IMG/VR virus record: IMGVR_UViG_3300032053_000047
Location: 1-64,000 of that record
Origin: a virus
Reading direction: 5' to 3' (one strand)
DNA: 64,000 nucleotides
Translations under genes and position numbers: made by a program
Notes under the pieces: model-generated
Told to the model about the DNA's origin: nothing
The model's input: the letters and a program-made list of their open reading frames with translations, nothing else
Database searches by the model: none
Part shown: piece after piece, positions 2,996-62,232 of the stretch
Layout of the letters: the number at the start of each line of letters is the position of its first letter
How positions within the stretch are numbered: position 1 is the stretch's first letter

Positions 2996-3177
2996 TAATC
3001 TTGGAAGTCGGCGATGAGCGCGTAGTAAGGCACGGCCACGGCAGGTACACGTTTGGCAATAAACAGACCGCGACTGGGATTGATCCCGCGCTTGGTAGGG
3101 CGATAGAAGTGCTTGTGACTGAACGTGATGAGGCGGTAAAACGAGCGGATAAATTGGAAGTTGATGAAACAAATTAG
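2992..3177 (+). CDS. hypothetical protein
   Basis: GTGA overlap with the upstream gene. Confidence 0.45.
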   Translation: MIILEVGDERVVRHGHGRYTFGNKQTATGIDPALGRAIEVLVTERDEAVKRADKLEVDETN

Positions 3178-3287
3178 CCGCAAGGCTGAAGCCGGGCTAT
3201 AAGAGAAAGAGAGAAAAGTAGCAAAAGAGAGAAAGAGAATTGACCGGAAAGAGGGTTGACAAAGCGAAAGAAGGGAAAGCCGATTGA

Positions 3288-3623
3288 ATGGCAATGAAAT
3301 GGCTGAAAAAGAAAACCGCGCGGCTGCTGTTGCGCTTCTTGCCGGAATACAGCATGGAAATACAGCGGCATGAAGACTGGCTACAACATCCAGGCGCGGA
3401 AACGTTCCGCGTTGTGCGCCGGTATTGCGGGGCAAGGCGGGTGGTTACTGAAATTGAATGCACGGGGTATGAAGGCGTCTTTGTGGCGACTAATGCCTTG
3501 CAGTTACAGTGTATGGAGCGAGAGGTAATTCTGCAAAAAGTACTCCCGGATTGGTATAAGCGATTGCTGCTAATGAAGTTCGGATATCCCGCCGACCATT
3601 TAGAGAAGGCGCGTCTGTCCTAG
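3288..3623 (+). CDS. hypothetical protein
   Basis: ORF in operon orientation. Confidence 0.5.
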   Translation: MAMKWLKKKTARLLLRFLPEYSMEIQRHEDWLQHPGAETFRVVRRYCGARRVVTEIECTGYEGVFVATNALQLQCMEREVILQKVLPDWYKRLLLMKFGYPADHLEKARLS

Positions 3624-3656: not shown

Positions 3657-4250
3657 ATGGTAACAGGTAGTATCCCAAAAAAGAACCCCTATAATATCAA
3701 GGCTTTAGGCGACATTTCTCCTGATCCGAAAAATGCAAATCGTGGGACTGAACGCGGGCTCGGGATGCTGGAGCAGTCCTTGCGCACATACGGCGCGGGC
3801 CGGTCGATCCTATGCGACCGTCATGGGGTCTGTATCGCAGGAAATAAAACGTTAGAACGGGCTGCTGATATCGGCATGGACGTGGAGGTAGTCCAGAGCG
3901 ACGGCAAGCGGCTCGTGGTGGTACAGCGGACCGACTTGGACTTGGCGGAAGGCGGGGCCGCGCGTGAACTGGCCTATGCCGACAACCGGGCGGGGCAGGT
4001 TGGACTCGACTGGGACCCGGCAGTACTGGCAGCGGACCTTGCGGCGGGGATCGACTTGGACAAGTTCTGGTTGCCGGGGGAAATGGAATTGATCGGGCCA
4101 GAAAAAGAGTCGGAACCGCTGGATGCTTCGCCCCAACTTGGCGCACTGGAATACCGGATCATCGTGACGTGCCGGGACGAAGAACATCATGCCGAAGTCT
4201 TGTCGATGCTTCAAAAAGAAGGGCTTGAATGCAAAGTTTTGATATCGTAG
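3657..4250 (+). CDS. ParB/Srx-like N-terminal domain protein
   Basis: PDPKNAN...SLRTYGAGRSILCD...IAGN...LAYADNR...WD. Confidence 0.75.
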   Translation: MVTGSIPKKNPYNIKALGDISPDPKNANRGTERGLGMLEQSLRTYGAGRSILCDRHGVCIAGNKTLERAADIGMDVEVVQSDGKRLVVVQRTDLDLAEGGAARELAYADNRAGQVGLDWDPAVLAADLAAGIDLDKFWLPGEMELIGPEKESEPLDASPQLGALEYRIIVTCRDEEHHAEVLSMLQKEGLECKVLIS

Positions 4251-30399: not shown

Positions 30400-33300
30400 A
30401 ACAATAGATAAAGTTATCATAACAGCGGGTTCACTATTTTTCCCCGGTATCCGCACCCGCATGGAAGCTGAACCCGGCGGTTCGATTCTGGATCTTATCA
30501 GGTTGGCGAAAATCCCGGAACGGTATCATTCATACCTAACCGTATGGCTTGATGAAATGCCTATCCCAGAAACGTTCTGGCCGCGTGTCAGACCGCGGGC
30601 GGGCCATATTCTGGCTATCGGCATGGCACCCGCGGGCGACCTCACTGGCGCGAACGGGAAAGACACCCTGCAACTGGCGATTCCCGTCATGCTCCAATTT
30701 GGCGCAATGGCAGGCGCGCTCGCGTTGGGCGCTCCGGGGATTCTCGCTGGCGCAGCGAGTCTTGCGGGCGGCGGGATCGGGGTATGGATTGCACAAAACC
30801 TGATTCATGTGCCGGAACCCTATACGAATCCGGGGTTCAGCACAATCGTTGGGGCACGCAACCAGGTCCGTAAATATGAATGTGTTCCCCGCGTTTACGG
30901 GCGTATCCGGTATGCGCCGCCGCTTGCAGCTATGGCAGATATGCCATTCGAGGGGGCGGATCAATATGCCAAACTATTATTGACGCCCGGACACGCGCCT
31001 TTGGCGATTAGTGCGATCCGTATTGGCGATATTCCAATTGTTGACGCTGAGGCTGTAAACATTCAGATTGAACGTGTATGTCACTGGCACGACCAGGATA
31101 CGATTACACTATTCAGCCGCGACGTTCATACTATTATGCTTGAAAAGCAACTCAATTATGCCGATAGTTGGATAAATACTGAAGATCGATCCGGCGCAGA
31201 ATCTCCACACCTAAACGTCGTCACTGCTGCAACGCAGGAAAAAACCACGGAAGTCACGATAGATTTCTTGTTTCCCGATGGATTATGGAAGGAAAATAAC
31301 AAAGAGGTTGAATCGCGTACAGTTACGCTTGCCATTCGATACCGGCTCAGGGGTGCTACCGGGTCTAACTCTTGGATGTTATATTCAACTAGAGAGTTGG
31401 TATCCCCAAAACCTAAATCCGCTTGGGTTGCCGATCCGTGGACCTATACAAGCCTTGCGACGTGCAACAGCGTGCTTACAACAGCCGACGCCGCAATGAC
31501 GCTTATTGATGTAGGATCTAGGACCGTTTCGATGACTGTATGGACGTATTTCTTGGCGAAACTATCCAGCGTTGATGCTCGACTAGCGGCGAACATTGCA
31601 CAGGGTTTTCTTACATCTAATCAAGAAACAGAATCTATAACTGCCCGCGTCCTAATTGCCTCAATATCTGCAACACTCAACACGGCAACAATTACAGCAG
31701 ACATGACGGAATCCACCGCCTCTGATTTTAATGATGCGCTATCAGGTTTAACGTTTGTCCTCGATGCCATAGACTGCATAGAGCAAATGTTAGAGGCCCG
31801 CAACAATAACCTAGATTGGGATTCCCTTCCGGCATGTCACCGTCTTTGTATGTATGAATTGGGACTTACATTAGTGTGGCCACCGCGCCCATCTAATACA
31901 AGCGCGATTATCGTGACTGCGGCAAGCGCTGCGCCTTTGCCATACGCGGTTTCATGGTATGTTCCCGAAGGCCAGTATGATATTCAGGTCCGCAAGACTT
32001 CAGCGGATAACTATGGCGATCAAACCGTCCATGCAGTCATCGAGTTGTTTGCCTACCGGAGCACCTCGTTGGAAGCGGCTGTATCCGAGGCAATGAAACA
32101 AAAACTGGCATTCGTAGCCATGAAGATCAAGGCGACTGACGAGTGGAACAACCAGATCGACCAGATCACCATGCTGTGCGAGTCACCCTTGTACTGGCAT
32201 GACGGATTAGTATGGCGCGGCCCGGATCTCCTAGATGACGCCGGATATGAAGTATCCCGCAATCCGGCGTGGCAGATGTGCGATATCCTGCGGGGCGGCG
32301 CGGCCAAAGAACCCATTACGGACGACGATGATCTCGATCTTGTGCGGATTCGGGAGTTTGCCAATTATTGCAACACGCACAAGTACACCTGCGATATCGT
32401 ATTTGACAAACGGGTTAGCGCCGAAGAAGCGATGATGACCGTATGCCGGTGCGGGAAAGCCACCCCGAGTAAAACGGGTGAAGGCAAGTATACTGTAATT
32501 ATAGATCAACCTCAAACTACTCCCGTTGCCCTTATAACCCCGCGCGTGAGCAGCAATTTTGTTGCCACAAAAAATATGGAGGAACGCCCGCACGCACTCC
32601 GGGTGAAATTTCAAAATGCCAATAAAGATTATCAGGAAGATGAGGCATATGTTTATGCGGACGGATACGGGATAGAACACGGACTTGCCGAACCGACCGT
32701 CATAGAAGATGTTGAAATGCCCGGCGTTACCAGCCCCACGATGATCAAACATTTGGGCCGGTATTTCCTTGCTTGTTCCCAGTTGCGGCCCGAGATTTTT
32801 CAGGTTGACATAGATTTCAAAGCCATTGTATTCGAGCGCGGCGATCAGGTCCTGCTCCAGCATGATGTGCCGTTATTTGGCCGCGGGTCAGCCCGTATAA
32901 CGGCGTTGGAAGTCATTGGGGCACGCACGTTCGTAACGCTCGACGAACACCCAACAGCATGGGCGTGGGGTGCGGGTGCGTCAAATGCGATCCGTATTCA
33001 GACAGGAGGCAACCTGTTTGCCTATACGCCGTGTATTTACGATATTGAGGTTGATGCGGATCGGCTTTATGTTGATGAACCATACCCGACTAACTGGGGA
33101 AGTATCGCAGTAGGCGATCTTATTGCAGTTGGCGCAATTGACCTGGAAACGGTTGAATGTATTGTGCGCGGGATTTCGCCCGGCCCGGACCTGACATACC
33201 GCGTCACATTCCTCGATCATGCGCCCGAAGTCCATGACGCCGACGACGATATCCCGGAATACGATTCGCACATCACTTTACCGTATCATCCCGAACTTGC

Positions 33301-44563: not shown

Positions 44564-45688
44564 TCAGGTAAATCGCGCCTGCGCCGCGTCTAATTTCGGC
44601 TTGCAATTTCCGGGGTGGACGTAGTGCATTGTCATGCGGATATCGCTATGCCCGGCCTGTCTCTGGACATCCGGCAGGGGTATTCCCCAAACGTTGACGG
44701 CCAGACTGCAAAACGTGTGGCGGAGGTCTTTGACGTTGCACCGCCGCTCGAATCCCTCAGCTGCCAATGCCCGCGTGAGGCCATTGTAGAGGATGTTGTT
44801 CGTGAGGGGATATCCCTCAGTCCCAGTAAACACAATTTCACTACTGATCCCCCGCACCCGTTCCCGTTCCAGGACAGCAATCACGGCCCCGCTGATTTCA
44901 AATGTTGCTAGTCGCCGCGCCTTCTTTTGAGTCCGTTCCACAATTCCCGTTTTCAGGTTTACTTGCCGCCATTTCAGCGCCGTCGCGTCCGAAGGCCGCT
45001 GGCCAGTCAATCCAATCCATCGGATACAATTGGCAATGTGTGGCGCTCGTTGGGCGACAATTTCAAAGACGCGGGCGAGTTGATCCTCAGTCAGCGGCCA
45101 GATCTCCGGTTCCTCGCATTTCGGCAGGAGCCATTTGCGGATCGGCGACTGGCCTATCAGTTCCCGATCCACAGCGGCGTTCAGACAGGCCCTCAACATC
45201 ATCAGCCGGTTCCGCGTCGTCTTGGCCGCATGGCCATCCCGGATGCGGCTGTCGGCGGCCCAGGCGTCCACAGTAGCCGGTGTGAGTTGGGATACCCGCC
45301 CGATATTGCGGCCCGCGCAGAATTGTTGGAAATCATATAGGACGCGGTTCGCCAGCGCGATTGTGCCGTCCGCAGCATTTTTCGCAGGTAGCACTTTATC
45401 TACATAATGGTCAACAATATCCCGAATACGGGGCCCCGCCGGGTCTTCCCCATCGGTCTGGGCCTCAGCAGCATGGTCTGTTATGAGTGCCGGCACGACT
45501 TCTTCCTTATATTGAGTCAGTGCGGCGTGGGCCTCAGCCTCCGACTGGGCGTTTATAAGCCGCCGGGTCCGCTCCTTTGTCCCCGGCCAATAAGTACTAA
45601 TCCCCCAGCGGTTTTTGGCGCGGTTGCGGTAGAGTGAGACGATAGGTTCGTTACGGCGCATGGGGCGACTCGGTTTTGACGACTTCAA
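44564..45688 (-). CDS. int: tyrosine integrase
   Basis: TGQRPSD (R), KDLRHT, AGHSDIRMTMHY (H, Y). Confidence 0.93.
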   Translation of the reverse strand: MKSSKPSRPMRRNEPIVSLYRNRAKNRWGISTYWPGTKERTRRLINAQSEAEAHAALTQYKEEVVPALITDHAAEAQTDGEDPAGPRIRDIVDHYVDKVLPAKNAADGTIALANRVLYDFQQFCAGRNIGRVSQLTPATVDAWAADSRIRDGHAAKTTRNRLMMLRACLNAAVDRELIGQSPIRKWLLPKCEEPEIWPLTEDQLARVFEIVAQRAPHIANCIRWIGLTGQRPSDATALKWRQVNLKTGIVERTQKKARRLATFEISGAVIAVLERERVRGISSEIVFTGTEGYPLTNNILYNGLTRALAAEGFERRCNVKDLRHTFCSLAVNVWGIPLPDVQRQAGHSDIRMTMHYVHPGNCKPKLDAAQARFT

Positions 45689-47159: not shown

Positions 47160-47570
47160 TCATTTTTTGCCTGTCTTAAACGGCATCTCGGCGCGATCCA
47201 TCGCGGTCGCATAGCAGGTTACAAACGTGCCAAGCTTTTCGATCTTTCGGTCGAGGCTGAACTCGCGGTCGGGCAAATTAAGAGCAGCGGCAAGCGCATT
47301 CGCGTCAAGCCTGGCAACCCTAAGCGGGTCCGAAGTTGAATCGCTAATTTCAGCGGGCGGCATTATCTTCATAATAAATCCATGTTCACGCAACCAAGGC
47401 TCTAGGCTGGAACGCTTCTCTGGGCCAAGAACGCCACGGCTCACAAAATCATACAGCGGCTGCGGAGTTTTCAATCCAATTGCTTTGGCGATATCTGTTA
47501 CGTGAATTCGCTTAGACGCGGCGGAAAGCGCCGCTCGTAGCCGTTCTTTTTCCGGTTCCATGTTGAACAT
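47160..47570 (-). CDS. putative repressor (HTH)
   Basis: VTDIAKAIGLKTPQPLYDF; divergent from cro-like gene. Confidence 0.6.
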   Translation of the reverse strand: MFNMEPEKERLRAALSAASKRIHVTDIAKAIGLKTPQPLYDFVSRGVLGPEKRSSLEPWLREHGFIMKIMPPAEISDSTSDPLRVARLDANALAAALNLPDREFSLDRKIEKLGTFVTCYATAMDRAEMPFKTGKK

Positions 47571-47638
47571 TGTAAACGCTGTAAGTCCTTATCACAAGCC
47601 TCTCTAGAGCAATCTAGACACCCCAGTCAAAATTCCTC

Positions 47639-47667
47639 TTGACAAATCTAGGTAAATCGTCTAAGAT
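47639..47667 (+). promoter_or_regulatory. rightward lytic promoter with AATCTAG operator-like repeats
   Basis: TTGACA-17-TAAGAT; AATCTAG at 47611, 47645, 47677. Confidence 0.75.
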
Positions 47668-47693
47668 TCTAAACGGAATCTAGGAGGTACACG

Positions 47694-48005
47694 ATGAACA
47701 AAGACAATAATGACCGCCCGCCGAGGGCTGAACGGCTTCGTGAATTACGCGGTGAACGAACCCTCCGCGAAGTAGCTAAACAGTTGGGGCTTTCACCTGC
47801 AACCATATCACTTAATGAAAATGGATACCCAATTTCCGCCGAGGTAGCCAACCTCTACAGCCAATTCTATGGCGTCGAAGTATCCGAATTTTGGACGCCA
47901 CCGGAACTTCCAATGGCCGACGCGGCCCAATCCGCGTCCTCTTGCGCTGACAATAGTTTACCACTGGCCGACGAAAATTTCAACCTGGAAGATGTCCATG
48001 CCTAA
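47694..48005 (+). CDS. Cro-like XRE HTH regulator
   Basis: LRELRGERTLREVAKQLGLSPATISLNENG; AGGAGG SD. Confidence 0.88.
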   Translation: MNKDNNDRPPRAERLRELRGERTLREVAKQLGLSPATISLNENGYPISAEVANLYSQFYGVEVSEFWTPPELPMADAAQSASSCADNSLPLADENFNLEDVHA

Positions 48006-48288
48006 AGTCGCAACTGCCGATCTCGCGATGCGCGAGTACTGGACCCCCGCCCAGGCGGCGCGGGTGCTCGGCCACGGGGCGGCATTCTGGCGGGCCGCGT
48101 TTGACCGCGGCGACGTCCAGGGGCAACTCGCGGGGGATCGCCGGTATCTAGTCGCCGGTTCAGCCCGCGTCTACCTGACTGGCCTATGCCGGGCCACTGC
48201 GCCCACAAAACCGCTGCAAACCCGCGGAGAAGCGGCTGTAGCGCGGTTCATGGCCCAACATGGGGCGCGGCCAGTTAGTACGAATTGA
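47998..48288 (+). CDS. excisionase-like HTH protein
   Basis: WTPAQAARVLG...GDRRYLV. Confidence 0.6.
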   Translation: MPKVATADLAMREYWTPAQAARVLGHGAAFWRAAFDRGDVQGQLAGDRRYLVAGSARVYLTGLCRATAPTKPLQTRGEAAVARFMAQHGARPVSTN

Positions 48289-48330
48289 CGAAAACGGAGG
48301 GGATCTGAAATTTGAATCGGCAACGCCGAC

Positions 48331-48404
48331 GGCAGGCTTGGCGCGGCTAGGCACGGCGAGGAATGGCCTGGCTAGGACCGGCTGGGCACGGCATGGGATG
48401 GTTT
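48331..48404 (+). repeat. GGY-NN pentamer array 1 (putative guide RNA)
   Basis: GGCA followed by 14 GGN-NN units, intergenic. Confidence 0.85.
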
Positions 48405-48423
48405 ACAAAATGGAGGAAACAAC

Positions 48424-49095
48424 GTGAAGAAGACAGAGGAAGCGGAAGCGGCACCAAAACAAAAGACGGTTTTAATTGAAAAGCCAAACATGGAAATCGG
48501 GCTTTTCCGTATCCGTGGAACGGCTCCTTATGTGCAACACCGTTTCGCCACGAAAGCCAAGGAAATGATGAAGGCGAAACAGGAAGCCGGATCAACGGCA
48601 GCAAAAGGCGCAAAGCGAGAAGCTAAAAACTTCATGGCAGAGTATGAGGCGGCGATGTACAAGATCGGCGCAAACGGGAAACCGGTGGAACATGGCATTC
48701 CCGCGCCTGCATTCCGTAACGCCATGATCTCGGCTTGCCGGGTTGTCGGCTTCCCTATGACGCGCGGCAAGTTGGCCGTGTTTGTGGAGGCCGATGCGTT
48801 CGATGAAAGCGACGGCACGCCCTTGGTGCGCATCATCAAAGGCAAACCCCACTGTACTGAAATGCCAGTGCGCCTCGAAACAGGCGTGATCGATATTAGG
48901 GTACGCCCGATGTGGGACGCGGGGTGGGAAGCCGAAGTGCGTATCCGATTCGATGCCGACATGTTCACGTTGGAAGACATCGGAAATCTGTTGTTCCGGG
49001 CGGGCGTGCAGGTAGGTATCGGTGAAGGACGGCCCGACAGCAAAAAGTCCTGCGGGATGGGCTGGGGGTTATTCGAGGTTGTCAAAAGCAAGTAG
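48424..49095 (+). CDS. stand-alone Cas7/RAMP-like protein
   Basis: FRIRGTAPYVQH, GIPAPAFRNAM, C-terminal G-rich loop GVQVGIGEGRP...GMGWGLFEV; GGAGG SD. Confidence 0.75.
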   Translation: MKKTEEAEAAPKQKTVLIEKPNMEIGLFRIRGTAPYVQHRFATKAKEMMKAKQEAGSTAAKGAKREAKNFMAEYEAAMYKIGANGKPVEHGIPAPAFRNAMISACRVVGFPMTRGKLAVFVEADAFDESDGTPLVRIIKGKPHCTEMPVRLETGVIDIRVRPMWDAGWEAEVRIRFDADMFTLEDIGNLLFRAGVQVGIGEGRPDSKKSCGMGWGLFEVVKSK

Positions 49096-49123
49096 CCGCC
49101 GCTGTGTGTGATAGTTGAATCAA

Positions 49124-49279
49124 GGCAGGCACGGCGGGGCCGGGCATGGCGGGGCTCAACGGGGTTCGGCTTGGCGCGACTTGGCGAGATAGGCTTGGCA
49201 GGCGCGGTTCGGCGGGGCGGGGCGGGGCGGGGCGGGGTATGGCACGGTTCGGCAAGGCATGGCAGGCATGAAACGGTTG
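49124..49279 (+). repeat. GGY-NN pentamer array 2 (two full units plus a stub)
   Basis: about 29 pentamers punctuated by GGCAGGC at 49124, 49197, 49261. Confidence 0.85.
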
Positions 49280-49280
49280 A

Positions 49281-49763
49281 GTGAGCGAAACGACGAAAGG
49301 ACAGAACGGAATGGACAGTTCAGTGTTGGATGAACTTGAGATGATCCGCGTCAAAAGCGGCGGCGTGCTCAAGCCAGAAGATGTAGTCCAGCGGGCGAAG
49401 GGCAAAAGCAACCCGCTACACAAGTATTTCACATGGGATGATACGGCGGCGGCGCGTGAATACCGCCTGTGGCAGGCCCGTGAGTTAATCCGCGTTCATG
49501 TGCGTATCGAATCACCGGGGCAAACATTTCCAACCCGCGTGTACGTCAGTCTCGATGCCGACCGGCAAGATGCGGGCGGCGGGTATCGCCACATCGACGA
49601 CGTGTTAACCAATACAGACTTGCGCAGCCAACTACTTGACGAGGCCGACCGCGACTTCCGGTATTGGGAAGCCAAGTATTCACACTTGAAAGAACTCGCT
49701 GGCGTTATCGAATCAATGGATATGGTGCGGACAAGACGTAGCAAGAAATCCAAGGCGGCGTAA
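49281..49763 (+). CDS. conserved phage protein linked to the RAMP-like gene
   Basis: LKPEDVV..A...NPLHKYFTWDDTAAAREYRLWQARELIR. Confidence 0.75.
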   Translation: MSETTKGQNGMDSSVLDELEMIRVKSGGVLKPEDVVQRAKGKSNPLHKYFTWDDTAAAREYRLWQARELIRVHVRIESPGQTFPTRVYVSLDADRQDAGGGYRHIDDVLTNTDLRSQLLDEADRDFRYWEAKYSHLKELAGVIESMDMVRTRRSKKSKAA

Positions 49764-49773
49764 CGGAGGCCAC

Positions 49774-50049
49774 ATGACGGCACGTAAGTGGAAACAGAAA
49801 CGGGCATTACAGCGGTTCGCGGAGGCGGTCCAGGCGCTACCCGGATTAGCCTTATGGGGAAAATGCAAAACGCTTGAAGACGTTCTGTATCGCGTTGCCC
49901 ATCCCGCTTGGCTGCCAATTGTAGATGCATGTACGGAAAGAACTGGTTTTGCGCCAATGGATGCGGCCAACATCGAATCCCGCAAGGATATTCGCTGGCT
50001 CTACCGGAGGTTACTTACCGCCTGCGGTGTTGATGCACGGCACGTATAG
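49774..50049 (+). CDS. hypothetical protein
   Basis: GGAGG SD. Confidence 0.6.
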   Translation: MTARKWKQKRALQRFAEAVQALPGLALWGKCKTLEDVLYRVAHPAWLPIVDACTERTGFAPMDAANIESRKDIRWLYRRLLTACGVDARHV

Positions 50050-50463: not shown

Positions 50464-50520
50464 CCTCCTTCCGCCGCGAGCCGGGGCGCGGAGTAGTACC
50501 CCGGCATAGAATTGAACTGT

Positions 50521-50593
50521 AGTCGTGTAGCGCAATAGGTAGAGCGCGGCGCTGTTAACGCCGAGGTTGTAGGTTCGAGTCCTACCGCGACTG
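50521..50593 (+). tRNA. tRNA-Asn(GTT)
   Basis: cloverleaf; CGGCG-CTGTTAA-CGCCG anticodon arm; GTAGG-TTCGAGT-CCTAC; no encoded CCA. Confidence 0.9.
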
Positions 50594-50736
50594 TTAAAAG
50601 TTGAAGAACCGATCCCCGGTGTGCCGCTGGGCACGTTCATCCTCACCATCCAACCCAGTAGCCGATTCACTCAGATAGGGACGCGCCACCCTCGCGTCCC
50701 ATGCTCAGCGGCACACTATAAAAATTGAATAGCTTT

Positions 50737-51839: not shown

Positions 51840-51858
51840 TTACCAAAGTTGAATTCGT

Positions 51859-51947
51859 GGGCGAGTGGCGAAATTGGCAAACGCAGCGGACTTAAAATCC
51901 GCTACCCCGGCCAGGGGTTTTTGTAGGTTCGAGTCCTGCCTCGCCCA
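51859..51947 (+). tRNA. tRNA-Leu(TAA)
   Basis: GGGCGAG/CTCGCCC acceptor; GCGGA-CTTAAAA-TCCGC; long variable arm. Confidence 0.92.
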
Positions 51948-52538
51948 TCTTATGAATTATTAAACTATTAGGTTTTGGCTAATAGTTGCCCCGGAGAGTA
52001 CGGGTATACAGTTGAATATTTTTAGGTGTGCTGTGGCCGAAGGAATGCGTGACGGGCGCGAGAAATCGCGTTGGTAGTGCGACGACGGCCCCAACGGTCG
52101 GCTCAATGATGGAGTAAGGAACAAACCCCTAGAGCAGCAAGCAGGTCAGCCGGGCGCGGGTGATTTTACCCGTAATGACAGTACAGGCCGAGATAATCGC
52201 CTGATAGCCATAGTATACCGATTTCCCAGCAGCGACCTTGCGGGGCCGTGCGGTGACATGGCGTAGCTCTCCCATAGAGAACGTCATGGCATCGTTACAT
52301 CAACCCGTTCCGGTTCTATCACGGCTGAGGCCGGACGCCGCTCGGATAACAGTTGACGGGTATCGGCGGATGTCCCAATGGCACTGTCCAGGAACAGTGG
52401 TCGGGCTTCGTGCGGTGCGTCCCTGGCGGGTGCGTGGGGTTCGATTCCCCAACGCACAGAATGCAGCATCCGCCGAGTTTTAGCGATGCCAAGGAGCGGG
52501 TCAACAGCGGCCCGCCCCCGCAAAGAAAGGAAAATGAT

Positions 52539-58632: not shown

Positions 58633-58696
58633 CAACAATGCCCGGCGCACGGATGCGCGGGCTTGGGGGCAGGGACGCCGAATGCGGGGAGTTGAT

Positions 58697-59377
58697 ATGC
58701 AGATTAAAAGCCGATGGAATGGCGAAGTACTGTATGAATGTGAGGCCGATAGTCTAATCGAGGTTGTCATTAAGGCCGTAGAAGCGGAGGCCAACCTCGC
58801 GGGGGCCAACCTCGCGAGGGCCGACCTCACGAGGGCCGACCTCACGAGGGCCGACCTCGCGGGGGCCAACCTCACGAGGGCCGACCTCACGAGGGCCAAC
58901 CTCACGGAGGCCGACCTCGCGGGGGCCAACCTCGCGGAGGCCAACCTCACGAGGGCCGACCTCGCGAGGGCCAACCTCGCGGGGGCCGACCTCACGAGGG
59001 CCTACCTCGCGAGGGCCGACCTCACGAGGGCCAACCTCGCGGGGGCCGACCTCACGGGGGCCGAGTTACCACATTTCCAAATCTGTCCTGAAGTCGGTAG
59101 TTTTATCGGCTTCAAAAAGCTAGACAACGGCATAATTGCCACACTATTGATCCCAGACGGTGCGCGGCGTATGACGCCGCTCGGTTATCGGAAATGCCGG
59201 GCTGAACGTGTGCGTGTATTAAGCGGCAATGGCAAAAGTCCAACCGCCAATACCAAACTGGAATACCGCGAGGGCGACATGGTTGAGGCGGACTCGTTTG
59301 ATGATGATATCCGGGTCGAATACAGCCACGGGATCGCGTTTTTTGTGACGCGGAAGGAAGCTGAGGAGTGGATATGA
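58697..59377 (+). CDS. pentapeptide-repeat protein (DUF5758-like C-terminus)
   Basis: A(D/N)LxR repeats (15-nt DNA repeats ~58790-59063); [18 protein letters not shown]. Confidence 0.85.
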
Positions 59378-61548: not shown

Positions 61549-62232
61549 ATGGATATTTTTAGAATCAAGAGTATTAGTGACTTTGAGCAATTCAAAACTG
61601 AAATCGGCTACCACGTGAAAGGACATCTGAAAATCGAATGTCCTATCTCACTCTGTGGATCGTTAATCGTTGATGGGTCCATCCATGCGGGCGAGTCCAT
61701 CAAGGCGGGCGGGTTCATCGAGGCGGGCAGGTCCATCCATGCGGGCGAGTTCATCAAGGCGGGCAGGTTCATCAAGGCGGGCGGGTTCATCGAGGCGGGC
61801 AGGTCCATCCATGCGGGCGAGTCCATCAAGGCGGGCGGGTTCATCGAGGCGGGCAGGTTCATCAAGGCGGGCGGGTTCATCGAGGCGGGCGGGTTCATCG
61901 AGGCGGGCGGGTCGATCCAGGCGCATGAGTCCATCCATGCGGGCGAGTACATCCATGCGGGCGGGTTTGTGTTTTCCTTCACCTTCTCTTTGTCCTGTAA
62001 GTGGCTTGAAACGCGCCTACTGCCGTTTTGGCGCGAATTCTATGCAACTATGCCACCGTTGCAAAAGTGGCGAGACAAGATTCTCAGCAAATCTTCTTGT
62101 TGGGGTGATCTACAAACATTAGTCACGCCTGATGAGGCTATGACTATCTGTGCATGGGATGGCTGGCATCCAATCATTAAGGCGCAACTGGAAATGTTTT
62201 TCGGTCTCAAAAAGCGCGTTGACTTTACCTAA
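61549..62232 (+). CDS. beta-helix hexapeptide-repeat protein
   Basis: (S/F)I(H/K/E)AG(G/E/R) repeats; 18-nt DNA repeats ~61675-61965. Confidence 0.75.
   Translation: MDIFRIKSISDFEQFKTEIGYHVKGHLKIECPISLCGSLIVDGSIHAGESIKAGGFIEAGRSIHAGEFIKAGRFIKAGGFIEAGRSIHAGESIKAGGFIEAGRFIKAGGFIEAGGFIEAGGSIQAHESIHAGEYIHAGGFVFSFTFSLSCKWLETRLLPFWREFYATMPPLQKWRDKILSKSSCWGDLQTLVTPDEAMTICAWDGWHPIIKAQLEMFFGLKKRVDFT

Follow-up and report, generated by a model that had tools for sequence, protein, structure and literature searches.

A probable VIPR locus with staggered, tail-less guide arrays punctuated by GGCA in a temperate phage genome

The stretch of viral DNA analysed here, 64,000 nucleotides (nt) long and hereafter called the window (positions 1 to 64,000 of IMG/VR record IMGVR_UViG_3300032053_000047), carries on its + strand two intergenic arrays of GGC-NN pentamers, at 48331-48399 and 49124-49269, with the gene of a 223-amino-acid protein located between them. 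It is highly probable (about 85%) that arrays and gene form a locus of the Viral Interference Programmable Repeat (VIPR) system, of the kind in which guides are staggered and have no tail, and that the 4-nt unit xGCA, mostly GGCA, is the guide delimiter. VIPR is a CRISPR-related DNA silencer described in 2026 (bioRxiv 10.64898/2026.04.26.720920; further VIPR preprints are 10.64898/2026.10.15.759431 and 10.64898/2026.10.21.760802). As set out in the available text of the first preprint, it consists of a small RAMP protein, Vipr, and of vrRNAs of 9-16 repeats in which a fixed GGY alternates with a variable dinucleotide NN. One Vipr protomer is bound per repeat, and the NN pairs read double-stranded DNA (dsDNA) with every third target base skipped, this base falling on the codon wobble position (10.64898/2026.04.26.720920). 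The discoverers, in the same available material, propose VIPR to be older than CRISPR. The window is a new example of this newly described RNA-guided DNA-recognition system, and adds to it a phage representative of the tail-less staggered kind; the system and the staggered layout are already in print.

The arrays and the Vipr protein of the window

The 5-nt phase of the repeats is broken by a 4-nt GGCA at 48331, 49124, 49197 and 49261, which leads to units of 13, 12 and 12 pentamers and a stub. These guide lengths fit the 9-16 repeats published per vrRNA. Array 1 opens with the GGCA unit at 48331..48334 (+), a start-of-guide mark, followed by the 13 GGY/NN pentamers of guide A (48335..48399, +; NN = TT GC TA AC GA AT CT TA CC TG AC AT AT). 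A ribosome-binding site (RBS) and the GTG start codon of vipr are found within 24 nt downstream of guide A.

Array 2 has a more complex organization. In the sequence parse it is opened by GGCA at 49124..49127 (+) and continues with the 12 pentamers of guide B (49128..49187, +; NN = AC GG CG AT GG TC GG TC TT GC TT GA), two of which have a degenerate GGY (AACGG and GACTT). A short stub bracketed between two breaks comes next (49188..49196, +), composed of the 4-nt unit GATA at 49188 and a single GGCTT. GATA is probably a degenerate junction, and among the 211 related arrays described below it is used as a break unit in the window only. The GGCA junction separating guide B and its stub from guide C was parsed at 49197..49200 (+) and conforms to the xGCA consensus of the relatives. 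Guide C (49201..49260, +) has 12 pentamers (NN = GC TC GG GG GG GG GG AT AC TC AA AT), including a (GGCGG)5 run at 49211-49235 (49211-49237 according to TRF). The array ends with a closing GGCA and the one-unit stub GGCAT (49261..49269, +), after which an A-rich spacer extends to the start of the downstream vap-like gene.

The original prediction, drawn from the letters of the window, had placed GGCA phase breaks at these same four positions. An independent parse returned identical coordinates and agrees exactly on the NN lists of units B and C and on the spacing of the breaks, 73 and 64 nt. GATA at 49188 is a further 4-nt unit that had not been listed as a like break.

The 5-nt periodicity of GGC is far beyond chance. 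Segments in which at least 5 of 8 units carry a phased GGC begin at 27 positions, each of which falls in one of these loci on the + strand; the - strand has none, and the whole contig of 72,989 nt has no array besides these two. The heptamer GGCAGGC is present 18 times in the window for 10.25 occurrences expected, a number reached in 1 of 100 shuffles. It is not special alone, and its meaning rests on its position inside the arrays and on its conservation in relatives. Two open reading frames (ORFs) span the arrays (48260-48427, 55 amino acids, and 49108-49284, 58 amino acids), each overlapping the ORF that follows by a GTGA. Rather than being genes, they most likely result from the scarcity of stop codons in G-rich repeats.

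The gene vipr (48424..49095, +) codes for a RAMP (Cas7-like) protein, presumed to bind the pentamer RNA, that was assigned to phrog_4652 (E 6.5e-14). The experimentally characterised Vipr of Escherichia phage SUSP1 (NC_028808.2) is likewise a phrog_4652 protein (E 1.4e-96). Vipr proteins are small RAMPs with a single RRM, a G-loop and a thumb. When profiles were compared in hhalign, the one built for the window protein (A1, 25 relatives) and the one built for SUSP1 Vipr (A2, 24 relatives) aligned over 176 columns, with a probability of 97.4% and an E of 1.3e-11. The SUSP1 residues reported as functional in the available text of the structural study, R138 of the thumb and R179 of the G-loop (10.64898/2026.04.26.720927), correspond in the alignment to R161 and R203, both invariant in A1, and SUSP1 D177 corresponds to the invariant E201. 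Judged by these alignments, the window protein is a Vipr-family RAMP, a family that counts at least 7027 proteins.

An AlphaFold model computed from A1 (pLDDT 82.2, pTM 0.76) has 44 matches in the PDB at E <= 0.001. Among the matches listed all are CRISPR effector complexes, including type III Csm/Cmr, type III-D, type VII and Cas7-11, and the matched chains of about 190-290 residues are those that we take to be Cas7-type backbone subunits. There is no Vipr chain among the matches from the fold library, whose entries extend to 2026-04-08. Pfam and NCBIfam gave no match for the window Vipr and no Cas model, a Protein Atlas search led to unnamed viral clusters only, and one relative is labelled 'CRISPR-associated protein' in UniRef.

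Punctuation and guide boundaries in related arrays

The layout was followed in 146 related loci, from 7 + 80 viral contigs and 59 genome contigs, which make 147 sequences together with the window's contig. Many of the genome contigs are metagenome-assembled genomes of Planctomycetota and Phycisphaerae, and some of the viral loci are one contig counted twice. Of the 147, 132 have GGY/NN arrays on the vipr strand (39,206 bp in total), and 8 have some on the opposite strand (385 bp). A dynamic-programming parse yielded 211 distinct arrays with 7218 units, in whose repeat logo GG reaches ~90% and C ~75%, the NN positions being mixed. Internal units departing from 5 nt number 573, of which 536 have 4 nt, 27 have 6 nt and 10 have other lengths. 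Among the 4-nt units, xGCA accounts for 484 of 536 (90%; GGCA 415, CGCA 58, TGCA 6, AGCA 5). A lack of the punctuation in homologous arrays, the outcome that would have refuted the original prediction, is clearly not what is seen.

Segments bounded by xGCA on both sides (n=321) have a median of 9 pentamers, with 84% of them holding 7-14 and 64% holding 9-16. Their spacing peaks at 8-12 units and shows no geometric decay; stubs of at most 3 units represent 9%. xGCA is positioned immediately 5' of the first in-phase unit in 116 of the 211 arrays, while 88 of them have 1-3 units left after their last xGCA break, like array 2 of the window. At 60% of 175 array ends the final GGY is followed by A. 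The logo of 530 junction contexts reads GGC-A(58%)-H, (G 85% / C 12%)-G-C-A, GGC-R-H. Position N4 of the unit preceding a break is A in 58% of cases versus 36% in the background and G is depleted at N5, so that the NN beside a break are less free than elsewhere.

The same layout is present in cultured phages, namely Cyanophage Cy-LDV1 (Vipr 54.8% identical) and Mycobacterium phage Brocalys (34%). A Vipr homologue is encoded in 25 Mycobacterium and 5 Gordonia phage records, Brocalys among them. Brocalys (L148, NC_031262.1), which infects M. smegmatis, has a GGCA-punctuated array at 2127-2357 of L148 directly upstream of the gene of the Vipr homologue gp45 (2351-3097 of L148); in NC_031262.1 itself the arrays lie at about 32517-32750. 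The homology to Vipr begins at residue 63 of the annotated 248-amino-acid gp45, whose annotated start is probably too far upstream. In Cy-LDV1 (L147, BK059895.1) two GGCA-broken arrays, at 3120-3327 and 3925-4082, follow the gene of the Vipr homologue and the next gene, and contain about 4 and 3 guides, respectively, of 7-11 units each. The delimiter consensus (G/C)GCA holds across hosts, from Planctomycetota to Mycobacterium and cyanobacteria. A literature search for mycobacteriophage RNA-seq, judged from the listed results, led to nothing on these arrays.

Matches between guides and targets among the relatives provide a test of the boundaries. A break-blind search was carried out with 4659 windows of 8 consecutive pentamers, from which the breaks had been dropped, under the one-base-skip rule and on both strands of the 147 sequences (about 1.59 Mb in total). 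It led to 14 exact 8-unit matches at skip 1 and to none with shuffled unit order, at skip 0 or at skip 2. The 14 matches correspond to 8 diagonals from 5 guides. The matched run starts at the first unit after a break in four of these guides; the fifth, from locus L111, stands first in its array, and 9 of its 10 units match, up to the break. In all five guides the run ends at the next break or 1-2 units short of it, and in three of them the 1-2 units just ahead of the break match the target incompletely. Adjacent guides do not tile the same target. Whole-guide matches of at least 90% amount to 6 versus 2 for shuffled guides.

A guide of locus L009 matches L008 from break to break in 10 of 10 units (20/20 bases). 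Its target is the stretch of Walker A codons YGQPGVGKTT of a Sak4-like gene, of which L009's own copy scores 17/20. Degenerate repeats (GACGG, AATGT) within this guide keep matching NN, and the degenerate units of the window may therefore still be read. Sak4-like genes are the target of three of the five guides, a phrog_7858 gene of one and vipr of other phages of one, the latter being the L111 guide that targets vipr in L081 and L102. At all 6 of the 6 target sites the skip falls on codon position 3. These cross-phage matches give independent, sequence-level support to the breaks as guide boundaries. Together with the conserved punctuation they sustain the earlier proposal that the arrays are multi-guide and that GGCA delimits guide-sized units.

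Searches with the guides of the window itself yielded no match beyond chance level. In its own contig no match rises above those of shuffles at skips of 0-2, and the best scores in the 147 related sequences (17-18 of 24-26) equal those of shuffles. Guides B and C have their best local scores (17-18/24) on codons of the Vipr G-loop (SCGMGWG) in related loci L113 (3103), L123 (3058), L118 (622) and L107 (3064); these scores equal those of shuffled guides, and their position is probably an effect of composition. The vipr motif targeted by the L111 guide differs from this G-loop motif. For guide A, units 1-11 and 3-13 have no match in viral contigs and units 1-10 none in metagenome contigs, and 5 + 401 Planctomycetota-centred genomes gave none with up to 3 mismatches; guide B has none in viral contigs. 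Units 5-12 of guide C match 88 stretches of viral contigs, where the best full-guide score, 21/24, is at chance level.

Units 1-10 of guide B are matched exactly at 8 loci of metagenome contigs (L240-L247). About 1-3 chance matches are expected for 20 fixed bases, a rough estimate from base composition and a guessed database size. In four of the 8 loci the match is antisense to a tyrosine-integrase gene, where this encodes the motif AKEP(E/D)PIRPV, and reaches 22-23/24 over the full guide. These integrase sites have three different sequences, which differ mostly at skipped bases, the skip falling on codon position 3. A kinase-like G-loop accounts for three further guide-B matches. The integrase match is a candidate target to be taken as a lead only, with a number of matches at chance level. 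No relatives of the matched integrase were found in viral contigs.

Delimitation and release of the guides

A sequence of events can be proposed for the production of guides from the two arrays. Both would be made within one early transcript started at a promoter near 47639. One Vipr protomer per repeat would hide GGY and leave NN free to read dsDNA. At GGCA the register would shift by -1, the last repeat of one guide overlapping the first of the next by one base. In the SUSP1 structures, as described in the available text, each GGY is held by two adjacent protomers (10.64898/2026.04.26.720927), and a 4-nt unit could therefore not be spanned in register. The register shift would interrupt the Vipr filament, and trimming or cutting at the junction left exposed would yield guides about 60-70 nt long. 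Such guides would silence early genes of competing phages.

Sequence patterns, namely the biased NN on either side of the junction and the often mismatched 1-2 units at the end of a guide, suggest a short handle there. The fixed GCA may serve a nuclease or the start of a filament, in line with the processing or nucleation site of the original prediction. A tentative version of the mechanism is that the one-base-short xGCA is the whole delimiter, without tail, ribozyme or Cas6-type repeat, the discontinuity of the filament setting guide length and the junction repeats acting as a semi-fixed handle. If true, this would be the most compact grammar known for a multi-guide array. Brocalys and its relatives as well as Cy-LDV1 are cultured and carry the same grammar, and the release of staggered guides is thus testable at the bench, most directly in phages of Mycobacterium smegmatis such as Brocalys.

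A rather unlikely account, which also takes the locus as VIPR, is that xGCA is an active sequence-specific cleavage site, cut either by Vipr itself, much as Cas6 does, or by an RNase of the host with preference for the pyrimidine-A bond. It finds support in the conservation of the junction in sequence and not in length alone, G/C-G-C-A being fixed, in the biased flanking NN (A at N4, G depleted at N5) and in the preference of array ends for GGC-A. Moreover, losing any N would suffice for a -1 shift, but the base that remains is A 90% of the time. However, the window has 14 more GGCAGGC outside the arrays, and a nuclease reading this word alone would cut mRNAs. No nuclease motif turned up in Vipr, for which no dedicated test was made, and no RNase activity of Vipr is reported in the available text of the SUSP1 papers (10.64898/2026.04.26.720920 and 10.64898/2026.04.26.720927). 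Cleavage at xGCA is compatible with the interruption of the filament by the shift in register, the two accounts not being mutually exclusive.

The two accounts that deny the breaks or the tracts any guide function are very improbable. If the breaks were neutral one-base deletions in one long repeat tract and delimited nothing, it would be fitting that the window has only four GGCA units, two of them at array starts where there is no earlier phase, and that its degenerate units AACGG, GACTT and GATA show a tract tolerant to decay. Neutral loss does not account, however, for 536 breaks of -1 versus 27 of +1 with xGCA in 90% of the former, for a spacing that peaks at 8-12 units instead of being geometric, or for target matches that stop at breaks. 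Even less credible is that the tracts are not guides, coding instead for Gly/Ala/Arg-rich peptides or acting as G-quadruplex or R-loop elements. Both arrays do lie inside the open frames that end in GTGA overlaps, and the + strand is G-rich, with GG every 5 nt. The period is nevertheless 5 instead of 3, the reading frame is displaced by the 4-nt units, a fixed GGY alternates with a hypervariable NN, and the true gene starts of the relatives come after a spacer with an RBS. The predicted RNA fold of the arrays is unexceptional (z -1.87; 8 of 200 shuffles fold as well). The tracts also co-occur with vipr in 132 of 147 sequences, and the NN of relatives match phage genes at skip 1 only.

Several observations weigh against the assignment of the locus to VIPR with xGCA-delimited guides. 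By itself, the match of the window protein to the SUSP1 Vipr chain 36pp_D is weak (E 0.42 with the single sequence, 0.035 with the family profile), W178 of the SUSP1 G-loop aligns with a Gly, and the TM-scores of the model to the listed Cas7-type chains are low (0.36-0.51). Array 1 has no closing GGCA, and xGCA is missing at the array start in 92 of the 211 related arrays, a number that depends on the caller. The boundary test is based on 5 independent guides only. Guides A, B and C have no secure target in their own genome, the related loci, the 401 + 5 genomes, or the viral and metagenome contigs. DNA of the locus was found in 3 DNA runs and in 0 RNA runs. In the available text of the first VIPR preprint the ribozyme arrays and the single-guide systems are stated to be confirmed by small-RNA sequencing, and the staggered type is not so stated (10.64898/2026.04.26.720920).

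The original prediction also held that slippage or recombination might diversify the guides. Slippage finds no support as a general mechanism: adjacent identical units are not enriched in the related arrays (552 of 6281, for a shuffle mean of 551.9). Among the 211 arrays a run of five GG occurs in guide C alone, and this (GGCGG)5 may be a local slippage event. No indel or length variants were seen in contigs from 3 DNA runs, although contigs cannot show rare ones and (GGCGG)5 was passed over as a repeat. Internal guides shared exactly between loci number only 5, all with the same or too-short neighbours. The arrays of L009 (3134) and L011 (3113) share one guide, 7 identical units after GGCA, and have unrelated guides upstream of GGCA; this single example, found by eye, hints at whole-guide exchange at the junction.

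Genomic context and relation to known systems

The contig, a virus record, has structural genes upstream of the locus and corresponds to a temperate phage of 73 kb whose VIPR locus is situated in the early region. The neighbouring genes code for an integrase, helix-turn-helix (HTH) regulators and proteins of unknown function. A tyrosine integrase is encoded at 44564-45688 (-) and a cro-like HTH gene at 47694-48005 (+), upstream of array 1. The cro-like gene is preceded by a promoter-like site, TTGACA-17-TAAGAT (47639..47667, +), with 10 of 12 matches to the consensus. On this consensus match, it is plausible that the site is the candidate start of an early rightward transcript carrying both arrays. 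No terminator-like site was found in 47500-49900.

The order of the locus is guide A, vipr, guides B and C, and a vap-like accessory gene (49311..49763, +) that codes for 150 amino acids from the ATG at 49311, its ORF being open from a GTG at 49281. Its product belongs to phrog_15946 (E 2.3e-27), and 131 of 150 loci have a phrog_15946 homologue downstream, in the same orientation. The family has no Pfam or PDB match. One relative may be a MarR-type regulator, as labelled by its source. The vap-like gene is unrelated to vap1 of SUSP1 (phrog_5926) in hhalign (0.3%).

Two tRNA genes, tRNA-Asn(GTT) at 50520-50594 and tRNA-Leu(TAA) at 51858-51949, lie shortly downstream of the VIPR locus. An Rfam search of 40000-64000 at E <= 1 returned these two tRNAs and a chance microRNA match only, and no ribozyme. 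Other repeats of the window are found inside genes. At 58682-59377 a 15-nt tandem repeat of 18 copies (58789-59064) encodes part of a pentapeptide-repeat protein with a carboxyl-terminal DUF5758 (Pfam E 1.1e-30 and 1.2e-18). The ORF at 61549-62232 has an 18-nt tandem repeat of 16 copies (61675-61967) and a weak beta-solenoid (FapA) match below the Pfam cut-off.

Before the match to VIPR was made, a TRAP-like ring-protein array, an immunoglobulin-switch-like R-loop/G-quadruplex tract and pentapeptide coding had been considered for the arrays, and all three were dropped on that match. Class 1 CRISPR-Cas systems have a Cas7 backbone on the crRNA, and their repeat-spacer arrays, with contiguous spacers, are processed by Cas6. 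They resemble the window locus in that the listed matches of the Vipr model are all CRISPR effector complexes, in the arrangement of one protomer per RNA step, and in a multi-guide precursor with a short conserved delimiter. They differ in having a 6-nt step with 5 informative bases, while the step in the window is of 5 nt with 2 informative bases and the guide is noncontiguous. Their delimiter is a repeat of 28-37 nt, compared to 4 nt in the window, and the window locus has no adjacent cas1, cas2, cas6 or large subunit gene. The locus was not assigned to class 1 CRISPR-Cas: TRF and a repeat view detected no repeat-spacer array in the window, and there are no cas operon neighbours.

Within VIPR, for which seven types (I-VII) are distinguished, the arrays interspersed with hammerhead ribozymes (legend of fig. 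S19, 10.64898/2026.04.26.720920, the part of the source available) resemble those of the window as multi-guide arrays in need of cutting. This type was rejected, as Rfam at E <= 1 detected no ribozyme in 40000-64000 and there is no room for one between the guides. The type II VIPR of phage SUSP1 (NC_028808.2; PDB 36pp) has in common with the window phrog_4652, the profile homology over 176 columns, GGY/NN repeats, the one-base skip at the wobble position seen in relatives of the window clade, and a two-gene operon of vipr and an accessory gene. In SUSP1, however, the vrRNAs are separate, of ~100 nt, with a conserved pseudoknot tail of ~40 nt, whereas the guides of the window are tail-less and 4 nt apart; the accessory gene belongs to phrog_5926 and not to phrog_15946, and the repeats are mostly GGT and not GGC. 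An assignment to type II, the type of the SUSP1 / P. fulva clade, was rejected on the lack of a structured 3' tail of ~40 nt and on a vap gene unrelated to vap1.

The closest likeness is to the staggered VIPR arrays, known here from the legend of fig. S18 (10.64898/2026.04.26.720920), according to which their vrRNAs arise from positions overlapping by 1 nt, the end of one being the start of the next. The window has the same arrangement of a Vipr RAMP gene flanked by GGY/NN arrays on its own strand and, when compared with this legend, the same directly abutting guides with a 1-nt overlap in register, as produced by the 4-nt GGCA. Register shifts of -1 are found inside array 2 at 49197 and 49261. 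In the YNNGG register used in the paper, ...CATGG and the GCAGG that follows it share one G, exactly as given by a 4-nt GGCA unit. By this shared G and by the wording of the legend, the layout found in the window is thus one already described for staggered VIPR arrays.

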